From an uncultured virus (IMG/VR IMGVR_UViG_3300029705_000096) (Duplodnaviria; Heunggongvirae; Uroviricota; Caudoviricetes): a DNA stretch of 20,000 nucleotides. The stretch is taken from the IMG/VR virus record IMGVR_UViG_3300029705_000096. One strand, 5' to 3'. Below, in pieces: positions 2 to 19,183 of the stretch. The translations under genes were made by a program, and so were the position numbers. Under the pieces are notes generated by a model. The model ran no database searches. It saw only the letters and a program-made list of their open reading frames with translations, and was not told where the DNA came from. Each line of letters opens with the position of its first letter. Positions within the stretch are counted from its first letter, which is position 1.

Positions 2-157
2 GATGCTTTCTCAGGCATCAACTACATCGACATTACATTGACAGCAACCTCGAACAAAGAAAAACCGAGCGTGTACACAGCTCGAAGCCAAGCAATTACA
101 GCTAGACAGAGAGCCTTCACCAGCGAAGACATGATAACGGTGGATTTCTATGAGTAA
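2..157 (+). CDS. C-terminal fragment of a probable baseplate J-like (wedge) protein, 5'-truncated by the window
   Basis: Open frame from the window edge (DAFSGINYIDITL...ITARQRAFTSEDMITVDFYE*), TAA at 155-157 overlapping the next ATG at 150. The product call rests on position directly upstream of a DUF2612-like gene. Confidence 0.55.
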   Translation, partial: DAFSGINYIDITLTATSNKEKPSVYTARSQAITARQRAFTSEDMITVDFYE

Positions 158-812
158 TAGATATGTTGTAAATCTCCAAAGTGATCTGCTTGAGCAATTT
201 CGAGGAAAGCCGAATATCGAGGCTCTTGTTGAGGTAATTGGCGTTGAACTCCAAGAAGTGTATGATTTTTTCTCTCAACTCCTGATCGAGCGAGACATCA
301 AGGTCGCAGTCGGAAAACAGCTGGACGGAATAGGCAGCATTGCAGACATGACCCGCAGCGAGGCGATTGCTCTTGCAAGAGACGCCAATTACCCCTATAC
401 CGATGAAGATGAGATGTATCGAGTATTCCTACTCTACAAAATCTTCGTCAACACGGCAAAGGGGACATATGCCGATGTTCTAAGATCCATCCACATGTTA
501 TGGGAAGGAACACTGACATATGAGGAGGATGCAACAGTTCCTGCGACCATTATCCTGAATTTTGAGCGGTTTAATGGGCTTGATATTCAGAGACTTCTAA
601 AGGTGCCCATTGTCAAACCTGCAGGCGTTAGAATTCTTTTCCGAGCCACTGGTCGAAAGGATCATTCTTTCTATACTGCAGGAACAATCACACATAGCAA
701 AAGAATAACCTACACCCAAGAAGAATACGACTTCTCTATCCCTGACATCCTCGTAGACGAAGACCAAAACCTTCTTCTTGATGAAAATGGTAATATCCTA
801 ACCGAAGGCTGA
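150..812 (+). CDS. DUF2612-like phage baseplate protein
   Basis: Motifs 'LLEQFRGKPNIEAL', 'AVGKQLDGIGSI', 'DEMYRVFLLYKIFVNTAKGT' and 'KPAGVRI' are typical of DUF2612/gpI-like baseplate proteins; lies between a baseplate J-like gene and the tail fibre. Confidence 0.75.
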   Translation: MSNRYVVNLQSDLLEQFRGKPNIEALVEVIGVELQEVYDFFSQLLIERDIKVAVGKQLDGIGSIADMTRSEAIALARDANYPYTDEDEMYRVFLLYKIFVNTAKGTYADVLRSIHMLWEGTLTYEEDATVPATIILNFERFNGLDIQRLLKVPIVKPAGVRILFRATGRKDHSFYTAGTITHSKRITYTQEEYDFSIPDILVDEDQNLLLDENGNILTEG

Positions 813-829
813 CAGGGAGGTAATGAAAT

Positions 830-1891
830 ATGTCCATATTCGTTGAAACTACCGACAGTGGCATCGGCTTGATGGTTCAGGCCCTGTTTGGAGACGCCAC
901 TATAGAGTTTACAAGGTTTGAATTCGGGAATGGGGACGTCCCCTCTGAACCCGAAAAGATGACCGAACTGGGCAACAAAATCTTTGAAAGCCCCGTTGTT
1001 GGTGAAATTGTTAAAGGCGAAAACTATGTCGATGTAGCAACGAAATTCGACAACAGAAATGTATCGCACGATTTCACTCTCACGGAAATTGGAGTATTTG
1101 CTATCGATGTGGGCACTCAGGAAGAGGTGATGTTTGCTTACATTCATCTCGGCGACCAAGGCGAACCTGTTCTTAGCACTGCGGCAAATAAACTGGTTGA
1201 GAATGAGATTGTCGTTCGTATCATTATCGACAAAGCCATAAACGTTACTGCTTCGGTTGCATCCACCATGTATGCATATCAAAAGGACTTTGATGACCAC
1301 TTGAAAGACTACGACAATCCGCACAAGGTCACAAAAGCACAAATTGGGCTTGGTGAAGTTCCGAATACGCATCCCAAAGACACAGAGATTAAATTTACAG
1401 AAGCACAGGAAATCGGAAATATAATGTCAGGAGATACGATCGGAACTGTCTTCGGAAAAATTGCGGCTGCAATCAGAGCTTTGATTGCCCACATCGCAAA
1501 CAAAAACAACCCGCATCAGATTACGCCCATGTCTATTGGTGCTGCTGGAGAAGGACACTCACACGCAACTTCCGACATTAAAACCGGCGTGCTTACTGTT
1601 TTGAGAGGTGGCACAGGGAAGAACAACTGGATAGCCAACAGAATTCTTTTCGCTGCTGCAAGCGATGAACTCGGCCAAATCAAGAATCCTGACAAAAAGT
1701 CTTTCCTCGTCCAAGGATCTAGTGGAGCACCATATTTTGAAGCCATTTCCGAGTTCGCCTTTTTCTCTACAGGAAAAGAAGCCCCTGATAGTACGAATAT
1801 CTTGTGGATTGATACAACTCCTACTACCGGCGGACTTAAATACCACAACGGGACAGAATGGACACATGTGCCTGTTGCATATGTGCAGTAA
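830..1891 (+). CDS. Phage tail fibre / tail-collar protein (short, 353 aa)
   Basis: The N-terminus ('TTDSGIGL...FTRFEFGNG...FTLTEIGVFA...MFAY') resembles the baseplate-anchoring tail-collar domain. Two 'HxxxxxNPHxVT' fibre motifs (HLKDYDNPHKVTKAQIGLG, HIANKNNPHQIT), a His-x-His motif (GHSH) and 'VLRGGTG'. RBS GGGAGGT upstream. Confidence 0.8.
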   Translation: MSIFVETTDSGIGLMVQALFGDATIEFTRFEFGNGDVPSEPEKMTELGNKIFESPVVGEIVKGENYVDVATKFDNRNVSHDFTLTEIGVFAIDVGTQEEVMFAYIHLGDQGEPVLSTAANKLVENEIVVRIIIDKAINVTASVASTMYAYQKDFDDHLKDYDNPHKVTKAQIGLGEVPNTHPKDTEIKFTEAQEIGNIMSGDTIGTVFGKIAAAIRALIAHIANKNNPHQITPMSIGAAGEGHSHATSDIKTGVLTVLRGGTGKNNWIANRILFAAASDELGQIKNPDKKSFLVQGSSGAPYFEAISEFAFFSTGKEAPDSTNILWIDTTPTTGGLKYHNGTEWTHVPVAYVQ

Positions 1892-1900
1892 GGAGAGAAT

Positions 1901-2230
1901 ATGAAAACGCTTGTATTTGATATTCCGTATGATCTTTCCAGTTTGATAGAAATGCTCGATTATGAAACGGGAGCATTGAGAGAACTCCTTGCGTATGCAG
2001 CCTCCAAAGGGTTAGAGAACACTACTGCATATCAAAAGTGGGAACAGGACTACCACGCCACCTACAAAGAATTCCAGATTGCAAAACAAACTCTGCAGAA
2101 TGATTATCTGCCCCGTGTCGTCGAAGGAACCGTTTTGAACTGGGAGCTGACTTACTCAACCAACTCGATCGAAGTACAAGTCTGTCAATGCGAGGGGGAG
2201 CAGAATGAAGAAGCACGAGTCGTTCTCTGA
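1901..2230 (+). CDS. Small accessory protein resembling the 'CXXX repeat peptide modification system protein' (TIGR04116-like)
   Basis: 109 aa, helical-looking body ending in 'NWELTYSTNSIEV', which recalls the W-x-I-D-F-x-T-x-E-I end of that family. RBS AAGGAG; overlaps the rSAM start by 26 nt. Confidence 0.6.
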   Translation: MKTLVFDIPYDLSSLIEMLDYETGALRELLAYAASKGLENTTAYQKWEQDYHATYKEFQIAKQTLQNDYLPRVVEGTVLNWELTYSTNSIEVQVCQCEGEQNEEARVVL

Positions 2231-3524
2231 TAAGCTTGGACGGATTTATCACCCGATTGATGCCGATGATACCTTCAAGGTAAACGATTGGAGAGCAAAA
2301 ACAATCACATTTCAGATCACAGAGGAATGCAACCTGAATTGCTCCTATTGTTATCAGGGAGCGAAATCTCGAAACAGAATGAGTTTTGAGACAGCCAAAG
2401 AAATTGTAGACACCCTTTTGGCTGCAGACAGCAGGACGAATCAATATATCACATCGGACAAAATCAGCGGTGTTATCTTGGATTTCATAGGTGGAGAGCC
2501 ACTGCTCGAAGTAGATTTGATCGATCAAATCATGGACTATTTTCTGGAACAGGCGTTTTTGCTCAATCACCCTCTGGCGACCAGATATATGATCTGTATA
2601 TCTTCGAATGGCACCTTGTATTTCACAGAAAGCGTACAGAGATTTCTGGAAAAATGGGAAGGTCGAATCTCTTTTTCTGTTAGCGTTGATGGGAACAAGG
2701 AACTCCATGATTCCTGCAGAGTCTTTCCTGATGGGACTGGAAGTTATGACCTTGCAATTGCTGCAGCCAAAGACTACATGAACAAACATGGCTTCATAGG
2801 AAGTAAAATGACGATAGCTCCCGGAAATGTCATGCATGTAAGAAGTGCTGTAAACAGCCTGCTTCAGGAAGGGTATGACGAGATTTATCTGAACTGCGTT
2901 TTCGAAGAAGGGTGGGAGCTTTCTCATGCCCAAATTCTGTACAGACAGCTCAGAGGACTGGCTGACGATTTGTTGGCTATGGAAAATCAACCCTATCTGT
3001 CCATATTTGACGAACACATCGGACACCCCATGAAGGAATCAGATAACCAAAACTGGTGCGGTGGGTGCGGAAGCATGCTTGCGGTCAATTGGAAAGGAGA
3101 ATTCTTTCCTTGCCTCAGATACATGGGATCTAGCCTGAACGGAGCACAAGAGCCGTTCATAATCGGAGACCTTGAGAATGGGATTATGAATTTGCAGGAA
3201 CACCGCGACAGGGTACAGGAACTCTCTGTCATCGACCGGAAGTCTCAAAGCACAGAGGAGTGCTGGAGCTGCCCCATCGCATCTGGATGTGCATGGTGTT
3301 CGGCATATAACTATCAGGTATATGGAACACCGAATAAAAGAGCGACCTTTATTTGCAAAATGCACCAGGCTAGAGTCTTAGCAAACGCATACTACTGGAA
3401 CCTGATATACAAAAAAGAAAACATAGGAACACGGTACTTGTTAGATATTCCTGCTGATTGGGCTGTCGAAATAGTTGGCGAGAACGAATACGCTATGCTC
3501 AAATCTTTGGCGGAGGAGGTGTAG
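2205..3524 (+). CDS. Radical SAM/SPASM peptide maturase, CXXX-repeat target family (TIGR04115-like)
   Basis: CxxxCxxC motif ECNLNCSYC (C42/C46/C49, nt 2328-2351), 'DFIGGEPLL' and 'SVSVDG...HDSCR'. SPASM cysteines 'NWCGGCG...FPCLRY...ECWSCPIASGCAWCSAYNY...ATFICKMH'. Adjacent to a Cys-every-fourth-residue protein. Confidence 0.92.
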   Translation: MKKHESFSDKLGRIYHPIDADDTFKVNDWRAKTITFQITEECNLNCSYCYQGAKSRNRMSFETAKEIVDTLLAADSRTNQYITSDKISGVILDFIGGEPLLEVDLIDQIMDYFLEQAFLLNHPLATRYMICISSNGTLYFTESVQRFLEKWEGRISFSVSVDGNKELHDSCRVFPDGTGSYDLAIAAAKDYMNKHGFIGSKMTIAPGNVMHVRSAVNSLLQEGYDEIYLNCVFEEGWELSHAQILYRQLRGLADDLLAMENQPYLSIFDEHIGHPMKESDNQNWCGGCGSMLAVNWKGEFFPCLRYMGSSLNGAQEPFIIGDLENGIMNLQEHRDRVQELSVIDRKSQSTEECWSCPIASGCAWCSAYNYQVYGTPNKRATFICKMHQARVLANAYYWNLIYKKENIGTRYLLDIPADWAVEIVGENEYAMLKSLAEEV

Positions 3525-3527
3525 TAG

Positions 3528-4199
3528 GTGGCATATATCGACCATGAAAGATTTCTTGATCTCAAAAAGCGAGTACGAGAAGAATGCCTCAAAAGGTGCT
3601 ACACTGGATCGGTGCTGATGTATGGAAGTCAAGACTTTGACTTTGAAAACCAACCTGCGGAAGGAAATCTGATTCTTGGGGAGCATTATGAGAAAATTGC
3701 AACCCCCCTCGCTGCGATCAATTCTGACCTAGTTCCAGATTTAGATCCCAAACGAATTGTCTCCGAAGAAGAACTCGCTATGTTGGAGGCGGCAGTAACT
3801 ACATTTGAGGCAGAGTCGAAAGCAAGGACAACTCCGGGTGAATGCAAATCGTCCTGCACCGGAACCTGTTATACAGAATGCTCCGCATCATGTACCGGAA
3901 GTTGTGGTGGAAACTGTTCCGGTGGTTGTCTTACAAGCTGCAATGGGTGCGACGGATGTAGTGGCAGCTGCACCAACGTATGTTCTGGATGCACAAGTAC
4001 ATGCAAAACGCACTGTACTGGAGGATGCAGCGGTTCCTGCAAGGAGACCTGCACTGTTTCTTGTGGATTTAGGGGTTGCTCCGGAAGCTGTAGAAATCAT
4101 TGCTACAATGGTTGCGTTTCTTCTTGCGGTGGAGGCTGCTCAACTTGTGGCAGCAACTGTTCGGGCGTTAGTCTAGTAGGAACGCAAAGCAGTCATTAA
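3528..4199 (+). CDS. Cys-rich CXXX-repeat modification target (precursor) with a ~105-aa N-terminal domain
   Basis: GTG start 3 nt after the rSAM stop, GGAGGAGG RBS. Residues 106-211 hold 28 Cys (22 CxxxC, 4 CxxC, 1 CxxxxC intervals) in a Gly/Ser/Thr-rich background. Confidence 0.88.
   Translation: MAYIDHERFLDLKKRVREECLKRCYTGSVLMYGSQDFDFENQPAEGNLILGEHYEKIATPLAAINSDLVPDLDPKRIVSEEELAMLEAAVTTFEAESKARTTPGECKSSCTGTCYTECSASCTGSCGGNCSGGCLTSCNGCDGCSGSCTNVCSGCTSTCKTHCTGGCSGSCKETCTVSCGFRGCSGSCRNHCYNGCVSSCGGGCSTCGSNCSGVSLVGTQSSH
3843..4160 (+). repeat. Degenerate 12-nt/4-aa Cys-Xaa-Xaa-Xaa periodic repeat
   Basis: TGY codons recur mostly every 12 nt from 3843 to 4158; translation CKSS CTGT CYTE CSAS CTGS CGGN CSGG... 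Confidence 0.9.
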
Positions 4200-4210
4200 G
4201 AGGTGACAAC

Positions 4211-4759
4211 ATGAATATTGCATCAAAGTTTGATATAGCTGCCTTGAACCTTTTCGTGGCAGCAAGTGAGGGAACTGTTTCTACGGAACATAGAATGGAA
4301 ATTTTCGAAAGCGTTGCTGGCGATCTTGACCTTATGGTCGAGGCCCTTAATGCGTTGATCGTCGGACACAATGCTAGAGTGTACTCTGGAACGCTTTCTG
4401 CGGAGAAGGCTTTTAAGTCCATTAAAGCAGAATACAAAGCAATTGGTTTTGGAGAAATTGTTCCTTTCGATTGCATGGAAGGTCCTCTTGAGATGCTTTA
4501 TTATAGAAAAAGCTCAGATGAAATAGATATGGACCACATGTTCGAGATCATCCAGAAGATGTTCCAAAAAAATGAAACCTGTCCCAACGAGAGAATTAAG
4601 TGTGGCGTATATCAGCTTGCGCTGAGAACAATTACGCACTACAACCTCGTAGCAAAGGACATAAGTTTCTCCAGACAAGTCATCGATAAAGTAAATTCCT
4701 ACACACAGGAACAAAAAGATTCCGCTCTTTTGCCCCCTGCCATTGTGACAGAACTGTAG
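4211..4759 (+). CDS. Hypothetical protein (182 aa), possible fourth component of the rSAM cassette
   Basis: RBS AAGAGGTG and ATG 11 nt after the precursor stop. Helical-looking, no recognised motif, and lacks the Gly/Thr-rich composition of the flanking tail proteins. Confidence 0.7.
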   Translation: MNIASKFDIAALNLFVAASEGTVSTEHRMEIFESVAGDLDLMVEALNALIVGHNARVYSGTLSAEKAFKSIKAEYKAIGFGEIVPFDCMEGPLEMLYYRKSSDEIDMDHMFEIIQKMFQKNETCPNERIKCGVYQLALRTITHYNLVAKDISFSRQVIDKVNSYTQEQKDSALLPPAIVTEL

Positions 4760-4769
4760 GAGGTATTCT

Positions 4770-5093
4770 ATGGCTATTGAAAAAATCACAGATAAGCCGG
4801 TGGCTGCATCGGCTGAATTGGCAGATCATATTTTGATCGTCATAGACGGAAAGCTCCGAAGGGCTACTGTTGAAACACTGGCGGATATTTTGGTGGAAGG
4901 GCATATAGTCAAAATCAACGCTGATGTTACTTCTGCCGTCAATGAAGCGACAGAGCTTGCTGATAGAATTAGAACATCGCTGGATAACGGGGAATTCAAC
5001 GGAACGCCCGGTGCTGCAGGAATTTATATCGGCAAGGACGAACCGACAGATCCTCACCATCCCGTATGGCTGTACTATGATCCCGAAGCATGA
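4770..5093 (+). CDS. Small tail-associated hypothetical protein
   Basis: RBS GGAGGT. 'KITDKPVA...DHILIVIDGKLRRATV' N-terminus, 'GEFNGTPGAAG' collagen-like remnant and 'IGKDEPTD...VWL' are motifs seen in fibre-associated proteins. Confidence 0.6.
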   Translation: MAIEKITDKPVAASAELADHILIVIDGKLRRATVETLADILVEGHIVKINADVTSAVNEATELADRIRTSLDNGEFNGTPGAAGIYIGKDEPTDPHHPVWLYYDPEA

Positions 5094-5134: not shown

Positions 5135-6094
5135 ATGGATAAACAGTATGCGAGAAAAAGATCTCCCGTTACAATCGGAAGGCATGGCGAAAACAAAGCA
5201 AGGCAGATTCTGTTCGATATCTCGCGCTGGAAAAAGCTCTACGGGTCTGGAACCGTAGCTCTTTTGCACAGGAGATGTGGAGACATCGAAGCATATCCTT
5301 GTCTCATCGAAATTGACGGAAACTTTGTTGTCTGGACGATCATGGAATCTGACCTTGCCAAAGTTGGACAAGGTCAATGCGAACTCCAGTATCTTAAAGG
5401 CGAAACGGTCGTCAAATCTGAGGTCTGGGTCACAAAAGTAAATAAATCCCTCACACACTGCGGAAACAGCTGCGATAACCCCCAAGACAGCTGGGTGACA
5501 AAAGTATTGCAGGCAGGTGCAGCTGTCCTTGAGGCGCAAATGCACCCTCCGATGATTGGAGACAACGGGAACTGGTTGGTTTGGTCATCCGAGGAAAGCG
5601 CATACAAGGACACAGGAATTTCTGCCGGCGGATACAACGATGCAGATAAACTGGATGTAGATCAAGGCGTAGAAAATTTCGGGAAAGCCATGGTGGTCGG
5701 ACCAGACGGGCGATTGGTTCCGGCTTATGTGTCTCCCGTCATTTCTGAAGAGCCTCCGGACGATCTTAATGTCGGGGCATACATCGACCCGAGAGAGGAT
5801 TATGAGGAAGAAGAAGGTGTCCCTGTCGCTTCTGGTGGAAGCGTCAGATACGACAACCCTCAAAATCTATCCGAAGATCAGAAAAGACAAGCCAGAGAGA
5901 ATATCGGAGCTTTTGCCTCAAGCCAAGGCGAAGAAAACGCCGAAAAACTCCTGTTTGTAGACAAGAACGGCATTGTCTCTGTACTAGCCATTGGAGCAGG
6001 GCTTGCGATAGTAGGAGGAAAGCTTACTCTTGCAACGCTCGCTACAACAACAGCCATACTGGGCACAGCGAAGCTCGGAGAAATGATCCTTTAG
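5135..6094 (+). CDS. BppU-like baseplate/fibre adaptor protein
   Basis: RBS AAGGAG. The N-terminus 'IGRHGENKARQILFD...W...LVWTI..SDL...GQGQCEL' resembles the BppU N-terminal domain; also 'PMIGDNGNWLVW...YKDTGISA' and 'QNLSEDQKRQARENIGA'. Confidence 0.6.
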   Translation: MDKQYARKRSPVTIGRHGENKARQILFDISRWKKLYGSGTVALLHRRCGDIEAYPCLIEIDGNFVVWTIMESDLAKVGQGQCELQYLKGETVVKSEVWVTKVNKSLTHCGNSCDNPQDSWVTKVLQAGAAVLEAQMHPPMIGDNGNWLVWSSEESAYKDTGISAGGYNDADKLDVDQGVENFGKAMVVGPDGRLVPAYVSPVISEEPPDDLNVGAYIDPREDYEEEEGVPVASGGSVRYDNPQNLSEDQKRQARENIGAFASSQGEENAEKLLFVDKNGIVSVLAIGAGLAIVGGKLTLATLATTTAILGTAKLGEMIL

Positions 6095-6108: not shown

Positions 6109-6609
6109 ATGAGCTACAAAAAACATATTTTTGCAGACGGGCATATACTAAAAGCCGAACATCTCAATGCCATGGAAGATCAGATCGCCCAGAACGAATC
6201 CAACAATGGCAACTTGGCTGACCTTTCCACAGACTCCAAATCATCCACTGTTTCGGCGATCAATGAACTTAATTCAAAAAAGGCAAATGCACCAACCAAG
6301 GCAGCGGTTGGACAGATACTTGTCGTAAAATCGGTCGACTCAGAAGGACATCCAACAGAGTTTGAGACTATCGCACTTCCTCAATGTGATTTTGGAGAAG
6401 AAGCAAAGATACTGTTGGTGGATATTCTTGGAAGCGCAAAATTTGAATCAGACCAAACATCCAACATTTCTGCTCTGGCAGAGGCGTTGGGTGTTGTTTT
6501 TTCACCTGAGCTTCCTGAAGAAAATGGCGTAGAAAAGGTCGACGAGACGCTGGTTATCACTGACAATGTCGACGCAGTACAAGATGGAAACACACTGGTA
6601 ATATCTTGA
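6109..6609 (+). CDS. Tail-associated structural protein (hypothetical)
   Basis: RBS AGGAGG. Motifs 'F.DG..LKAEHLNAME', 'GNLADLST.SK...VSAINEL' and 'VGQILVVKSVD.EG.PTEFE'. Confidence 0.6.
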   Translation: MSYKKHIFADGHILKAEHLNAMEDQIAQNESNNGNLADLSTDSKSSTVSAINELNSKKANAPTKAAVGQILVVKSVDSEGHPTEFETIALPQCDFGEEAKILLVDILGSAKFESDQTSNISALAEALGVVFSPELPEENGVEKVDETLVITDNVDAVQDGNTLVIS

Positions 6610-6622
6610 GAGGAGTGAATTT

Positions 6623-8032
6623 ATGAGCAAAGACGTATTGATCGGCGAACAGACGTATTCAGGAATAACAGACGTGCAGCTTAAAACCACAACTGGTCAA
6701 GCCGCCACGTTCAAAGATGTTGACGAGATCGTCACACCGAGCGGTGAAAAGGAAATCACAGCAAACGGCACATACGATATCACGGGATATGCCAGCGTGG
6801 TCGTAAATATTCCGACGGAGGGTGAAGCAATGACGATTAACACAGAAGCAAGCACAACATTTGAACTTGCAAATGGCACCGAATTCAGACGGGGAGAGGT
6901 AGCGGAACTTGTTCTTACAATCCCCGAGGAACTCCCCACAGCTTTTAGCTGTCAAGTTGCATTTACAAGTGGTGAAAACGCAACTAGCATTACAATGCCC
7001 ACAGATGTCGTAATGCAAGGCGAATCTGTGTCCAATGGAGTTTTCACACCCAAGGCCCATTATCGATATGGTCTCATGTTCTGGTACGACGGCGAAATCG
7101 TGTGGTGTGTCATTTGTGCCGCAGCTCTGGAAGGAGCAGAAGACAATCCTGACGAAGGCGGCAGCGGAGATAATACCGGAGATGACACCGGCGATACTGG
7201 AAATACCGGAGGTTCTGGATCTGGCGGCGAAGATGATAACACCGAGATGACTGGTAGCGGAACGGAGTCTGATCCGTACATGATTGCAACTGCAGCACAG
7301 TTCGTTGCACTTGGAGAAGAAGTTGATGCCGGCGATACGAAGAGTGGAGTTTATTACGCCGTTGCAAACGACCTCGATTTGGATGGCATCGAATGGAACC
7401 CCATTGGCGCAAACTATAAGAATACCAACAGTGACACCGACAATAGCGGTAGCTTTGCCGGTACGATTGATGGTCGTGGTCACGTCATCCGCAATATCAG
7501 CATAAACGGCATGCAGTATGCAGGTCTGTTTGGCTCGAACTTTGCCGGTACAGTAATGAACCTTGGACTTGAAGGTGGCTCCATCAGCACGACTTATGCA
7601 AGTTCCACTTGCGGTGCCATTGCACGCAAGGGTTCCGGCAAGATCGTAAATTGCTACGCACGAGTTCCCGGTCAAGCTGTTACTCGTTCGTCCGGTATCA
7701 TTGATGAGATCGAAGCTGGCGGCATGGTCCTTGGCTGTTACCAAGCTGCAGCTATCAACAACGGAAATGGCTATGCGATCAAGTCTGCTACTACAACAAC
7801 CGGAACAATTAAGTATTGCCTGTGGGATAGCACATTGACAGAAAAGGGTATTGCCGGGACTTCTTCTTCTGATTCCAACAATAACGGTATTACAACCGCA
7901 GAGTTTGCAACAGCTCATACAACCCTCAATAATAATCTTTCCGCTGTTGCTGCTGCGGCCGGAATCGATGTTGCCAAGCTGTGTGCTTGGGAGGCTGGTT
8001 CTGACGGTTATCCCAGACTGGTGGTGGCGTGA
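6623..8032 (+). CDS. Tail-associated protein with a C-terminal GLUG-type/beta-helical adhesin-like domain
   Basis: RBS GAGGAG. N-terminal 'PSGEKEITANGTYD...YASVVVNIP', an acidic Gly/Asp/Thr linker, then 'GSGTESDPYMIATAAQF...DLDL.GIEWNPIG...FAGTIDGRGHVIRN...YAGLFG', typical of GLUG-associated surface domains. Confidence 0.65.
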   Translation: MSKDVLIGEQTYSGITDVQLKTTTGQAATFKDVDEIVTPSGEKEITANGTYDITGYASVVVNIPTEGEAMTINTEASTTFELANGTEFRRGEVAELVLTIPEELPTAFSCQVAFTSGENATSITMPTDVVMQGESVSNGVFTPKAHYRYGLMFWYDGEIVWCVICAAALEGAEDNPDEGGSGDNTGDDTGDTGNTGGSGSGGEDDNTEMTGSGTESDPYMIATAAQFVALGEEVDAGDTKSGVYYAVANDLDLDGIEWNPIGANYKNTNSDTDNSGSFAGTIDGRGHVIRNISINGMQYAGLFGSNFAGTVMNLGLEGGSISTTYASSTCGAIARKGSGKIVNCYARVPGQAVTRSSGIIDEIEAGGMVLGCYQAAAINNGNGYAIKSATTTTGTIKYCLWDSTLTEKGIAGTSSSDSNNNGITTAEFATAHTTLNNNLSAVAAAAGIDVAKLCAWEAGSDGYPRLVVA

Positions 8033-8964
8033 TGAGTCTTACGATGAGACGATTTGCTGCAATTGCTCAACTATCGTCAGGTAGTGCAGTTGCGCCTGTT
8101 CTTCGGTACAAGCTCGGAATTATATCGGACTCTCACTCTGGATACACAAATGCAGTTCCGCATTTAACGGCAACCTTGAATACGCTTCATAATCGTGGGG
8201 CGCAAGAAATCGTCACTTGCGGAGATAGTGCTGTAAATGGTACTCAGGCAGAATGGGAGCAGTATATCAGCACAATCGAATCGTCCCCGTACAAGAGAAC
8301 TCAAGTTCATGAGTGCAATGGCAACCACGATGGTGCCGCCCCCGATCTGACCACGTTTAAGCAGTATTCAAACAATGGAGCTTTGGTGGGAAAAGATCCG
8401 TACTTTGCGATCGACCTGTTTGGAGATCGTTTCATTTTCTTGGCTTTCGATGTTGGAACGTCTCCCAGCGGTGGAAACTGCTTCTCAACAGCACAGCTTG
8501 ATTGGCTTGAAGAAGAGCTTCAGGAGCACTACGGCAAAGGGAAGAATGTGTGGATCATTGAACACTCTCTTTTCTATGGTTGGGGTGCTGGTGATATTAT
8601 TTCCGCCCCTAGATACCCAAGAGCCTTGTCCCTTTCCTTTGATAGCCATATCCGCCTGAAATCCATTTTGGAAGCACATCCCAAGCTTATCTTCCTCCAC
8701 GGACATACGCATATTAGGCTTGAAGATGTTTCCGAAGGACTCGTTGCCCATGCACTTCCTGCGGATGCCGGATGCAATCAGATTCACGTCCCTGCTGTTA
8801 CCGCAGGTAAGTTTATTGGAGGCAGCGGCGAACCCTCGGCGGATTTTAGTATGGACCCGGAATGCTGGTACTGCGAAGTTTACACAAACAAGATTGTTTT
8901 CATCGGTCTTAACGGCAATACTGGTGAAGAAATAGCAAACGTTTCTCATACTATTGCAGTCTAA
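8032..8964 (+). CDS. Calcineurin-like metallophosphoesterase
   Basis: All five family motifs appear in order: IISDSH, TCGD, NGNHD, IEH, FLHGHTH. The ATG at 8032 overlaps the upstream stop (TGATG); the track's GTG at 8029 is an alternative start. Confidence 0.85.
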   Translation: MSLTMRRFAAIAQLSSGSAVAPVLRYKLGIISDSHSGYTNAVPHLTATLNTLHNRGAQEIVTCGDSAVNGTQAEWEQYISTIESSPYKRTQVHECNGNHDGAAPDLTTFKQYSNNGALVGKDPYFAIDLFGDRFIFLAFDVGTSPSGGNCFSTAQLDWLEEELQEHYGKGKNVWIIEHSLFYGWGAGDIISAPRYPRALSLSFDSHIRLKSILEAHPKLIFLHGHTHIRLEDVSEGLVAHALPADAGCNQIHVPAVTAGKFIGGSGEPSADFSMDPECWYCEVYTNKIVFIGLNGNTGEEIANVSHTIAV

Positions 8965-17113: not shown

Positions 17114-17134
17114 TAACGACGGGAGGTGTTCCCA

Positions 17135-17428
17135 TTGGACTTGGCACACGAAGAACGACTGAGCAAGGTCGAAGAAAGGTCGAAGTCGAACCAGCATCGC
17201 CTAGATGAGATGGAGCGACGACAGGACAACCTTGACGATCTCGTTGGAACCGTTAAAGTTCTTGCATCCAGAGAAGAAATAGTCGAGAAAGATGTAAAAG
17301 AAATTAAAGATGACGTCAAAGAATTGACCAACAGACCGGCAAAAAGGTGGGAAGACATCGTAAGCAAAGCGATTATGACCATTGTAGCCGCTGTTGTAGG
17401 GTTCATTTTGGCGAAAATCGGACTGTAA
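17135..17428 (+). CDS. XhlA/haemolysin-like lysis-cassette protein (coiled coil plus C-terminal TM)
   Basis: RBS GGGAGG favours TTG 17135. 'ERLSKVEERSKSNQHRLDEME' coiled coil and one C-terminal hydrophobic helix 'AIMTIVAAVVGFILAKIGL'. Confidence 0.7.
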   Translation: MDLAHEERLSKVEERSKSNQHRLDEMERRQDNLDDLVGTVKVLASREEIVEKDVKEIKDDVKELTNRPAKRWEDIVSKAIMTIVAAVVGFILAKIGL

Positions 17429-17465
17429 CCAAACCGAAAATCCCAGAGAGGAGATATACTTTCGA

Positions 17466-17885
17466 ATGGAAATAAAAGAATTCTTATCTGCGTTGCTCCA
17501 AGCGATACTGATTGCCTCTATACCTGTGGTTGCTACATACATCAAGAAGAGTCTTCAGGCGTTTGCAGAATATCTGAAATCAAAAATCGAGAACGACAAA
17601 TCTAAGCATATTCTGGACGACATCGCAAAAGCTGTCACGGATGCAGTGACATACACGAGCCAGACATATGTTGACGCACTCAAGCAGAGCGGATCATTTA
17701 CCATGGAGAACCAAGGGATTGCACTTCAGAAGTCCTATGACAAAGCAAAAATGCTGCTTGGAGATCAGGCAATTGAGTACATCGAACTCACATACGGCAA
17801 CCTGAAGGAATATCTCACCACCAGAATTGAGGCTGAAGTCAGGAAGCAAAAAGTTTGTGTTCAGGCTGTAGAAGCGAAGGAGTGA
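17466..17885 (+). CDS. Phage holin, LL-H-like family
   Basis: Single N-terminal TM followed by 'AVTDAV.YTSQTYVDALK...IEAEVRKQK'; directly upstream of the endolysin. Confidence 0.7.
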   Translation: MEIKEFLSALLQAILIASIPVVATYIKKSLQAFAEYLKSKIENDKSKHILDDIAKAVTDAVTYTSQTYVDALKQSGSFTMENQGIALQKSYDKAKMLLGDQAIEYIELTYGNLKEYLTTRIEAEVRKQKVCVQAVEAKE

Positions 17886-17890
17886 GAAAC

Positions 17891-18715
17891 ATGACTGAAT
17901 TGGAAAAGCGTCAACAGGTAGTTGATATCATGGCTGGATGGGTTGGCGCAACCAAGGGAAGTGCGGCACATAGAGAAATCCTATCTTTGTACAACGGCCG
18001 TTATCCTATTGCGAGAGGGTACGCTGTCCAAGAATATGACGATTATTGTGCTACAACGGTAAGTGCTGCCTTCATCAAGGCTGGGATCGCCGAGTACACA
18101 GGGACTGAGTGTGGCGTAGAACGGTTCGTTGAAGTTGCAAAAGAAAAAGGCATATGGATCGAAGATGATGCATTTGTTCCCCAGTTCGGAGATGCGATTG
18201 TCTACGATTGGCAAGACACAGGCGTAGGAGACAGCCAGGGCTGGGCAGACCACATCGGCATCGTCGCTGCAGTGAATGGAAACCTTGAAACCGTAATTGA
18301 AGGCAACATGAGCGGCGGCGTTGTTGGAACCAGATCGATTGAGGTCAATGCAAGATACATACGAGGCTATATCTGCCCTGACTATGCAAAGATTGTCGGC
18401 GTGTCAACCGTTTCTCCGTCTGTTCAGCCACTACCTCAAGTGCCACTGCAGCCGCAGCAAACGCATCCTCAAACAACAGATCTTAACTACGAAATGTTCA
18501 AGAGTTACCTTGCCAAATACAGAGGCGAGGTACGAGACAATGATGCATCTGCGTACAGCGAGGAAGCTCGTATCTGGAGTGTAGCAATGGGCTTAATCGC
18601 TGGCGGAGGCAATGGCGCGGACGGAAAGCCAAATTATATGTGGGAAGATTTTCTCACGAGAGAGCAATTTGTTACCGTGCTGTACCGGTTCGCTAAGATT
18701 ATGGGTAGAGCCTAA
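17891..18715 (+). CDS. Endolysin: CHAP catalytic domain, Pro/Gln linker and SLH-like domain
   Basis: RBS AAGGAG favours ATG 17891. CHAP residues 'YCATTVS', 'DHIGIV' and 'VIEGN'; C-terminal 'W....GLIAG...LTREQFVTVLYRF' SLH signature. Confidence 0.85.
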   Translation: MTELEKRQQVVDIMAGWVGATKGSAAHREILSLYNGRYPIARGYAVQEYDDYCATTVSAAFIKAGIAEYTGTECGVERFVEVAKEKGIWIEDDAFVPQFGDAIVYDWQDTGVGDSQGWADHIGIVAAVNGNLETVIEGNMSGGVVGTRSIEVNARYIRGYICPDYAKIVGVSTVSPSVQPLPQVPLQPQQTHPQTTDLNYEMFKSYLAKYRGEVRDNDASAYSEEARIWSVAMGLIAGGGNGADGKPNYMWEDFLTREQFVTVLYRFAKIMGRA

Positions 18716-19047: not shown

Positions 19048-19183
19048 GCGATCACGGGTTTACCTCCGGCCCGTTTCGCCCGGTGTTCGTAAGAAAGATA
19101 TCCCCCTTTTCTTCGACAAAATCGAATACCGGAAATAAATCCCCCCCACTTCAGCAATTGCTGGAGTGGGGGCTTTTGTTTTT
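19048..19183 (+). ncRNA. Candidate structured RNA / 3'-UTR element: three consecutive hairpins with C-rich unpaired segments
   Basis: Hairpin 1 (19048-19079) has loop TACCTCC, hairpin 2 (19080-19132) has loop ATATCCCCC, and hairpin 3 is the terminator. G-U pairs in all three stems favour + strand folding. Confidence 0.4.
19143..19183 (+). terminator. Rho-independent terminator closing the late operon
   Basis: 13-bp stem CCCCCACTTCAGC-aatt-GCTGGAGTGGGGG (one G-U) followed by CTTTTGTTTTT. Confidence 0.85.

Follow-up and report, generated by a model that had tools for sequence, protein, structure and literature searches.

A phage-borne CXXX-repeat radical SAM cassette set among tail genes, with a cysteine-ladder protein as its putative substrate

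We analysed a 20,000-nucleotide stretch of DNA (hereafter the window), bases 51807-71806 of the 73,007-bp record of the uncultured virus IMGVR_UViG_3300029705_000096 (Caudoviricetes; CheckV completeness 86%). Within its tail-gene region the window carries a cassette encoding a 109-aa accessory protein, a 439-aa radical S-adenosylmethionine (SAM)/SPASM enzyme and a 223-aa protein with a ladder of 28 cysteines. By homology we firmly place this cassette as a phage-borne form of the CXXX-repeat radical SAM modification system, a peptide-modifying system already known from bioinformatic definition. Whether the enzyme cross-links the phage's own Cys-ladder tail-region protein, made together with the tail genes, we regard as an evenly balanced proposal.

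The enzyme scored 465.6 bits against TIGR04115 ('radical SAM peptide maturase, CXXX-repeat target family'; cutoff 350) over model positions 1-359 of 359, and a six-frame search of the phage record with the same hidden Markov model (HMM) returned 466 bits. This profile match firmly assigns the protein as a full member of TIGR04115, bearing out a preliminary description of the window that had called it a CXXX-repeat radical SAM/SPASM enzyme. Of the three families that the description had named for checking only TIGR04115 stood, as TIGR04114 and TIGR04116 matched no window protein even at E<=10. Other maturase families scored below their cutoffs, namely the PapB family NF047865 (171.2 bits, E 3.3e-50, cutoff 340), the SCIFF maturase family TIGR03974 (106.6 bits, cutoff 425), CcpM and the quinohemoprotein amine dehydrogenase maturase. 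The best-scoring families after TIGR04115 were thioether-forming maturases (the PapB family, CcpM and SCIFF), and the anaerobic sulfatase maturase family TIGR03942 was detected at 58 bits (1e-15). Pfam assigned Radical_SAM, Fer4_12 and SPASM domains, with SPASM at 21.1 bits falling slightly below its cutoff of 21.5. Across 20 enzyme homologues C42, C46, C49, C285, C303, C353, C356, C362, C365 and C384 were invariant, making up the CX3CX2C radical SAM motif and seven C-terminal cysteines. The nearest solved chain by sequence was 5wgg_A (E 9.2e-21), residues 97-439 of which aligned to enzyme residues 32-388 across the radical SAM and SPASM parts. The entries 5wgg and 5why, titled 'Radical SAM domain protein', presumably represent the SCIFF thioether maturase CteB. 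No counterpart of the first ~96 residues of 5wgg_A was present in the window enzyme, and we take these residues to be an N-terminal RRE, a peptide-recognition domain. Just 31 residues precede the aligned region, and the window enzyme has no space for such a domain. When the enzyme was compared to deposited phages by tblastn, no cultured phage exceeded 39% identity, and unannotated phages from faecal metagenomes gave the best matches.

At locus L151 the radical SAM gene (L151:7845-11267) encodes 1,141 aa with Hint, intein-splicing and LAGLIDADG domains at two places, and two inteins appear to interrupt this enzyme. Hint or intein Pfam domains were also present in the enzyme homologues P0038 and P0071. 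On a 7.6-kb contig of a Methanobrevibacter metagenome-assembled genome (L106) the enzyme match was broken into open reading frames (ORFs) of 88 aa and 57 aa, a copy that may be mis-binned or decayed.

The putative substrate contains 30 cysteines, of which 28 form the ladder at residues 106-211 with spacings of 4 (22 of 27), 3 (four) and 5 (one). CxxxC steps numbered 23, whereas 10,000 shuffles of the protein's residues gave 3.9 on average and 11 at most. Cys made up 13.5% of this protein as compared to 0-3.2% of the other 23 + strand ORFs, and 24% of the part after residue 104 (28/119 residues). The ladder is otherwise rich in small residues (C28 S24 G23 T14), with just 3 Glu and 1 Asp. Tandem Repeats Finder detected no DNA-level tandem repeat in the ladder region at a score of >=30, so it is selection acting on the protein that maintains the period of 4. 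Across 67 ladder proteins 98% of 2,936 spacings of 8 or less were 3-4 residues (4 in 70%, 3 in 28%), no position of the repeat was conserved, and Ser, Gly and Thr dominated every position.

Ahead of the ladder lies a domain of about 100 aa that AlphaFold2 (AF2) modelled as helical with a predicted local distance difference test score (pLDDT) of 85.3. No NCBIfam, Pfam or functionally named PHROG model matched this N-domain. The sole PHROG match of the target was phrog_6085 (function unknown, E 1.8e-5), TIGR04117 matched it weakly (E 1.2), and the precomputed annotation of the collection gave PF27846.1. The nearest Atlas clusters were auto-named 'Modification target Cys-rich repeat domain-containing protein' and were 67-89% viral. 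In a search of 1.84 billion proteins the N-domain family comprised 633 cluster representatives (E<=0.001), and a ladder was present in 102 of the 151 N-domain proteins examined, the remainder being mostly short fragments. Fold comparison with BFVD returned only uncharacterised phage proteins. The best match in VIA wide reached Z 6.2, and three baseplate TssK/IglD chains of type VI secretion systems (Z 6.2, 4.9 and 4.5) were too weak to use.

A single-sequence search for longer forms of the target found none. Among the relatives, L152:10011-12761 encodes a 917-aa protein in which a ladder of ~370 aa (93 Cys) is followed by two PG_binding_1 domains (E 4.3e-33), more sequence without assignment and a glycine zipper. 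The L152 enzyme clusters with that of L154, whose neighbours are not phage-like. P0141 has a 191-aa Cys-free domain after the ladder and P0171 has a domain of ~178 aa ahead of the N-domain. The extra domains of P0141, P0171 and P0246 had no Pfam match and only phrog_6085, for P0246, among PHROGs. Those of P0141 and P0171 had no sequence match in the PDB, and tblastn against phages returned nothing for P0141 and one short match in an unannotated record for P0171. P0127 and P0179, in which the N-domain is followed by a Cys-free Pro/Ala/Val-rich stretch, were set aside because they look like frameshifted ladders, as does the C-terminal part of the L059 ladder ORF, which is rich in Val and Ala.

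The 109-aa accessory had no NCBIfam, Pfam or PHROG match, and the TIGR04116 HMM matched neither the window protein at E<=10 nor any of 43 accessory homologues at E<=0.001. We compared the accessory alignment (A3) using hhalign with six TIGR04116 members, small proteins of the type found beside the enzymes of the distant loci L157 and L159. This gave a probability of 93.8% and E 1.7e-7 over 93 columns. Because the match is full-length, the accessory is, as judged by profile similarity, probably a divergent TIGR04116 family member. The small enzyme-adjacent proteins of L157 and L159 matched TIGR04116 at 84 and 43 bits. The accessory was modelled by AF2 as beta-alpha-alpha-beta-beta (pLDDT 89.3). 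Foldseek against the PDB gave nothing at E<=0.001 (best E 1.1), and the best VIA wide match was a de novo designed protein (Z 8.2 over 67 residues) amid tied weak rows. No entry named for the RRE, a winged-helix fold, was among the weak, tied matches listed in either search, a result that speaks for the listed families alone. Complex prediction for the accessory (A3) and the target N-domain (A2) scored 0.07 against a mark of 0.32 and has no bearing either way.

One relative, P0124 (334 aa), has N-domain, ladder and a complete accessory domain (98.9%, E 2e-17 by hhalign against the accessory profile) in one frame, and would be either a natural fusion or the result of a lost stop codon. A C-x-C motif (often L-C-D/N-C) was present in the last 35 residues of 12 of 39 accessory homologues (A3). 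In the window accessory it reads CQC at residues 95-97, in the low-confidence tail of the model. The motif is a sub-family feature of the accessory.

Enzyme relatives numbered at least 3,879 proteins at E<=1e-30. An alignment-based scan identified 510 viral and 114 genome stretches encoding an enzyme relative, of which 160 loci were kept, and 152 full-length enzymes were clustered at 70% identity into 50 clusters. The accessory, the N-domain and the two ORFs that follow the target (182 aa and 107 aa) were sought using iterated profiles. A Cys-ladder ORF was present in 145 of the 160 loci. The N-domain occurred always with a ladder and always on the strand of the radical SAM gene, and in three clusters it was placed after the ladder. 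Weak matches to TIGR04114/04117, located in the ladder, were seen for just 7 of 42 targets. Ladder proteins spanned 143-917 aa and contained up to 96 Cys. Gene order was accessory-enzyme-target in the window clade and target(s)-accessory-enzyme in most others. Because accessory homologues were found in 43/50 clusters and the N-domain in 42/50, but the 182-aa and 107-aa ORFs in 3/50 each, the conserved system as read from gene content is one of three genes (enzyme, accessory and ladder target) and not four.

The preliminary description had counted the 182-aa orphan as part of the system. We rejected it as a fourth component and consider it lineage-specific, as its homologues were confined to 28 of 160 loci and were missing from close relatives such as L006, L007 and L024. 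Its Atlas model was all-helical (predicted template modelling score 0.84), with tetratricopeptide-repeat-like neighbours at a template modelling score of about 0.5 and no family. The 107-aa ORF matched longer proteins of 347-528 aa at the same position in related phages, and may be a split or shortened form of them.

Genome records carrying the cassette were, by title, those of anaerobes, mostly gut Clostridia. Anaerobic hosts would suit an enzyme that is sensitive to oxygen, and also surroundings in which disulfides cannot be relied on. Many carriers sit in megabase-scale bacterial contigs and are therefore prophages.

The locus is laid out as the preliminary description had reported, with four co-oriented and tightly packed genes at 1901-4759 (Table 1). 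Distances along this run are 9, -26, 3, 11 and 10 nt, and each of the four starts is preceded by a GGAG-type ribosome-binding site read from the sequence. The + strand forms one long gene run from the baseplate-type gene through the CHAP endolysin. No promoter-like site was found on the + strand within 1901-4759. The sole terminator-like site in the cassette (4393-4410) is weak, with 3 GC pairs, and lies inside the 182-aa ORF. Counts of promoter-like and terminator-like sites in the window were at chance level (27 vs 28.6 expected; 20 vs 17.7), and the single strong terminator of the window lies beyond the lysis genes. These data uphold the description's claim that neither a promoter nor a terminator is visible for the cassette, and they support a cassette that carries no signals of its own and is probably co-expressed with the late tail and lysis genes.

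The window was also said to contain no peptidase or exporter. None of the 25 window ORFs had a peptidase or ABC match in a Pfam scan, and PF00005 (ABC_tran), PF00082 (Peptidase_S8) and PF03412 (Peptidase_C39) had no match across the whole 73,007-bp record, with control genomes matched, so the claim extends beyond the window. The phage product therefore appears to be kept as a whole protein. As for a temperate lifestyle, integrase, resolvase and reverse transcriptase genes were not found in the 86%-complete record. The description had called the next downstream gene tail-associated, but the 107-aa ORF at this position had no NCBIfam, Pfam or PHROG match. A series of fibre-like ORFs lies between the cassette and the XhlA-like, holin and CHAP endolysin genes. 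The metallophosphoesterase gene is embedded among these, its start overlapping the end of the preceding ORF by 4 nt.

Table 1. Features of the window (position 1 is the first base of the 20,000-nucleotide stretch).
Feature	Position	Strand	Evidence or remark
DUF2612/baseplate protein	150-812	+	first gene of long + strand run
Tail-fibre-type gene, directly upstream of cassette	830-1891	+	phrog_7037 tail fiber E 1.1e-23; other tail families too
109-aa accessory, overlaps radical SAM gene start by 26 nt	1901-2230	+	probable divergent TIGR04116 (CXXX_rpt_assoc) homologue, by profile similarity
Radical SAM/SPASM maturase, CXXX-repeat target family (439 aa)	2205-3524	+	TIGR04115 465.6 bits
Target (223-aa ORF 3528-4199, GTG start), N-terminal ~100-aa helical domain, unnamed family	3528-3839	+	profile homologues, AF2 model
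Target Cys ladder, 28 Cys, residues 106-211	3843-4160 (ORF end 4199)	+	Cys spacing
182-aa all-helical lineage-specific protein	4211-4759	+	outside conserved cassette
107-aa ORF after cassette	4770-5093	+	without family match
Separate ORFs after 107-aa ORF	5135-6094, 6109-6609	+	ORF list
Calcineurin-like metallophosphoesterase	8029-8964	+	PF12850 E 1.6e-6; phrog_1649
XhlA-like protein, start of lysis module	17126-18715 (module)	+	phrog_937 'hemolysin' E 2.5e-17
Holin	17466-17885	+	phrog_13712
CHAP endolysin, overlaps holin end	17855-18715	+	Pfam/PHROG match
Strong intrinsic terminator, closes late tail/lysis unit	19143-19172	+	13-bp stem, 9 GC pairs, T run

The link to tail genes extended to the relatives. 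For the fibre gene directly upstream of the cassette, all 5 non-identical relatives (~40% identity, all of one clade) had the accessory directly next, and the radical SAM and target genes followed where the contig was long enough. Gene context was scanned more widely in 25 of the 50 cluster representatives, chosen because their flanks were longer than those of the rest. On either side of the cassette the closest three genes of >=100 aa outside it were compared to PHROGs at E<=1e-5 (four of the six neighbours in the case of L139). A tail-category PHROG was found within three genes upstream in 19 of the 25 representatives and a tail or lysis family on either side in 21. Homologous cassettes are thus not randomly placed, as the tail-linked system of the preliminary description implied. 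The neighbouring tail genes were of contractile-tail baseplate or baseplate-wedge types, along with one tape-measure/Dit/minor-tail set (L101).

Two clusters, of 53 and 24 loci, are the largest, and in both the cassette lies between baseplate/fibre genes and a large downstream protein, which appears to be diversified by a diversity-generating retroelement (DGR) in the L056 cluster and is a phrog_5302 tail protein in the L100 cluster. In the former, the cluster of 53 loci, the cassette is placed two genes upstream of a 760-aa ORF with a 115-nt repeat at its 3' end. The two repeat copies (L056:12236-12350 and L056:12470-12584) are 90% identical. Wherever they differ, the intergenic copy has an adenine and the copy in the 3' end of the ORF has G, C or T. 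The repeat adjoins a reverse transcriptase of family phrog_1423 at L056:12794-14071. This looks like the pattern of a DGR acting on a receptor-binding protein. The same reverse transcriptase family was also present near the cassette in L100 and L126.

We compared the cassette to known systems. The CXXX-repeat system of NCBIfam consists of the TIGR04115 maturase, the TIGR04116 associated protein and the Cys-rich targets TIGR04114/04117/04118, and reportedly goes back to Haft and Basu in 2011. The phage cassette shares the enzyme family, has a probably homologous partner and has an adjacent substrate with Cys at each 3-4 residues. Our most distant relatives, L157 and L159, encode enzymes 39-41% identical to that of the window, and from their gene content they sit in classical operons for peptides made on the ribosome and modified after translation (RiPPs), with an ABC transporter, an S8 subtilase, an enzyme of ~710 aa, a TIGR04116 protein and a Cys-rich precursor of 65-73 aa. 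The phage form differs from these bacterial loci in that its substrates are 143-917 aa long with a folded domain of ~100 aa, its enzyme has 439 aa, and it is set among tail genes without a peptidase or exporter. A classical RiPP operon pairs a short precursor with a peptidase or exporter, whereas the window offers a 223-aa target with a folded domain. A literature search found no description of the phage form, nor of the chemistry or function of either form.

The best-scoring characterised relative of the window enzyme is PapB of the PapB/PapA (freyrasin) ranthipeptide system. Published work describes PapB as forming multiple thioether rings from the Cys of short motifs that recur, using a radical SAM cluster and two auxiliary clusters, as requiring Asp or Glu as acceptor on the C-terminal side of each Cys, and as docking the leader on an RRE (PMC12373016). 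The window enzyme differs in its sub-cutoff score, in having no N-terminal RRE space and in being paired with a ladder of 4 acidic residues for 28 Cys. With so few acidic residues and no conserved position in the repeat, PapB-type acceptor chemistry cannot explain the ladder. A link to the backbone alpha-carbon, on offer from any residue including Gly, would suit the composition better. The likeness to 5wgg/5why is confined to the radical SAM and SPASM parts, with the first ~96 residues unmatched and the SCIFF model scoring far below its cutoff. For the virion, covalently cross-linked proteins such as the isopeptide chainmail of the HK97 capsid offer a comparison, its links being autocatalytic and between subunits. 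If the ladder protein is cross-linked as we propose, both systems would harden a virion protein by covalent links, but in the phage cassette the links would lie inside a single chain of a tail-region protein and be made by a dedicated radical SAM enzyme.

We propose that SAM-derived radicals from the enzyme modify the evenly spaced Cys of the neighbouring protein. Each thiol would be joined to a carbon of a nearby residue forming a thioether ring, and the Cys/Ser/Gly/Thr-rich tail of the target would become a chain of small rings free of disulfides. Docking may be provided by the TIGR04116-like partner together with the helical domain of the target, as we infer from the lack of room in the enzyme for an N-terminal recognition domain. 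With no peptidase or exporter the product would stay a whole protein, and would join or attach to the tail-fibre/host-recognition apparatus. That the enzyme acts on the ladder is very probable. Thioether chemistry has a slight edge over the other outcomes, and a virion- or tail-associated product stands at an even chance. Somewhat short of even is the fuller picture, in which phages of strictly anaerobic gut hosts staple their own tail or host-recognition protein with a RiPP-type maturase, producing a disulfide-free, thioether-laddered rod.

A number of observations weigh against a cross-linked tail-region protein. Neither the accessory nor the target of the window is recognised by the curated HMMs of the bacterial system (TIGR04116 and TIGR04114), and apart from phrog_6085 the target resembles no PHROG family, structural or otherwise. 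The Asp/Glu acceptors that PapB needs are missing from the ladder, and Cys-oxidising enzymes, the anaerobic sulfatase maturases, also score. At least 28 sites per chain, each consuming one SAM under the usual stoichiometry, would be heavy for an abundant structural protein. In the 25 scanned representatives lysis genes followed within three genes downstream in 10, a tail family lay downstream in only 5, and no tail or lysis neighbour was found in 4 (L128, L104, L110 and L154, the last with a transposase). The tail/lysis junction is, moreover, a slot that also collects cargo genes. The preliminary description had held that the cassette is not a self-contained moron. The part of this that stands is the lack of own signals and the position behind tail genes; given the lysis genes that follow in many relatives and the nature of the slot, the claim as a whole is likely but unproven.

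The cassette may be cargo (a moron). The modified ladder protein, freed at lysis or produced by the prophage, would then act extracellularly and outside the particle in a role such as antimicrobial, adhesin or cell-wall binder. The bacterial relatives are exported RiPPs with their peptidase and ABC transporter, lysis would make an exporter needless, the L152 ladder is fused to peptidoglycan-binding domains, and many carriers are prophages. Together with the lysis genes downstream, these points make a product released at lysis a live and serious rival. We nevertheless hold it to be less likely. In the window the genes of the cassette overlap or are spaced by 3-11 nt, with neither promoter nor terminator of their own. 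Tail genes precede the core in 19 of 25 representatives, over differing tail types, and in the two largest clusters a large protein, apparently DGR-diversified or of phrog_5302, lies downstream of it. The substrates are also proteins with a folded domain and not leader-core peptides. Less probable still, and taken jointly, are a ladder protein that works inside the infected cell, as a scaffold or length template for fibre assembly or as a binder of metal or iron-sulfur, and an enzyme that performs other Cys chemistry such as formylglycine oxidation or epimerisation in place of cross-linking. Genes after tail fibres often encode assembly chaperones, the Cys content with its Gly/Ser/Thr spacers is metallothionein-like, sulfatase maturases are detectable relatives and no acceptor residue is conserved in the repeat. 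Against this, thioether-forming peptide maturases outscore sulfatase maturases (171 vs 58 bits), the strict period of 3-4 residues with up to 96 Cys suits a repeated local reaction over metal sites, and the cell-wall-binding domains fused to the L152 ladder point outside the cell.

What is added here to the known system is the probable homology of the accessory to TIGR04116, the exclusion of the 182-aa ORF from the core, an enzyme without the ~96-residue N-terminal region, a ladder without PapB-type acceptors, and distant relatives in classical RiPP operons, whose ABC transporter, S8 peptidase and 65-73-aa precursors are all absent from the 73-kb phage record. Radical SAM/SPASM maturases are known as makers of small secreted peptides. 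In the phages such machinery appears to be fixed in the tail-gene region of many lineages and to act on whole proteins without a protease or exporter, on a scale of 510 viral stretches with an enzyme relative and 633 representatives of the target domain. Related prophage cassettes are present in several cultured bacteria. If the product is part of the virion, the system would illustrate a way for anaerobe-infecting phages to keep extracellular structures stable with no disulfides, would reveal new Cys chemistry because the known acceptor residues are absent, and may be a determinant of host range in phages of gut Clostridia. If the ladder is indeed stapled into a rod, a virion structural protein would for the first time be seen cross-linked by an enzyme through radical chemistry, and the system would be the first RiPP-like one with a whole-protein product, of 140-900 residues and up to 96 sites.

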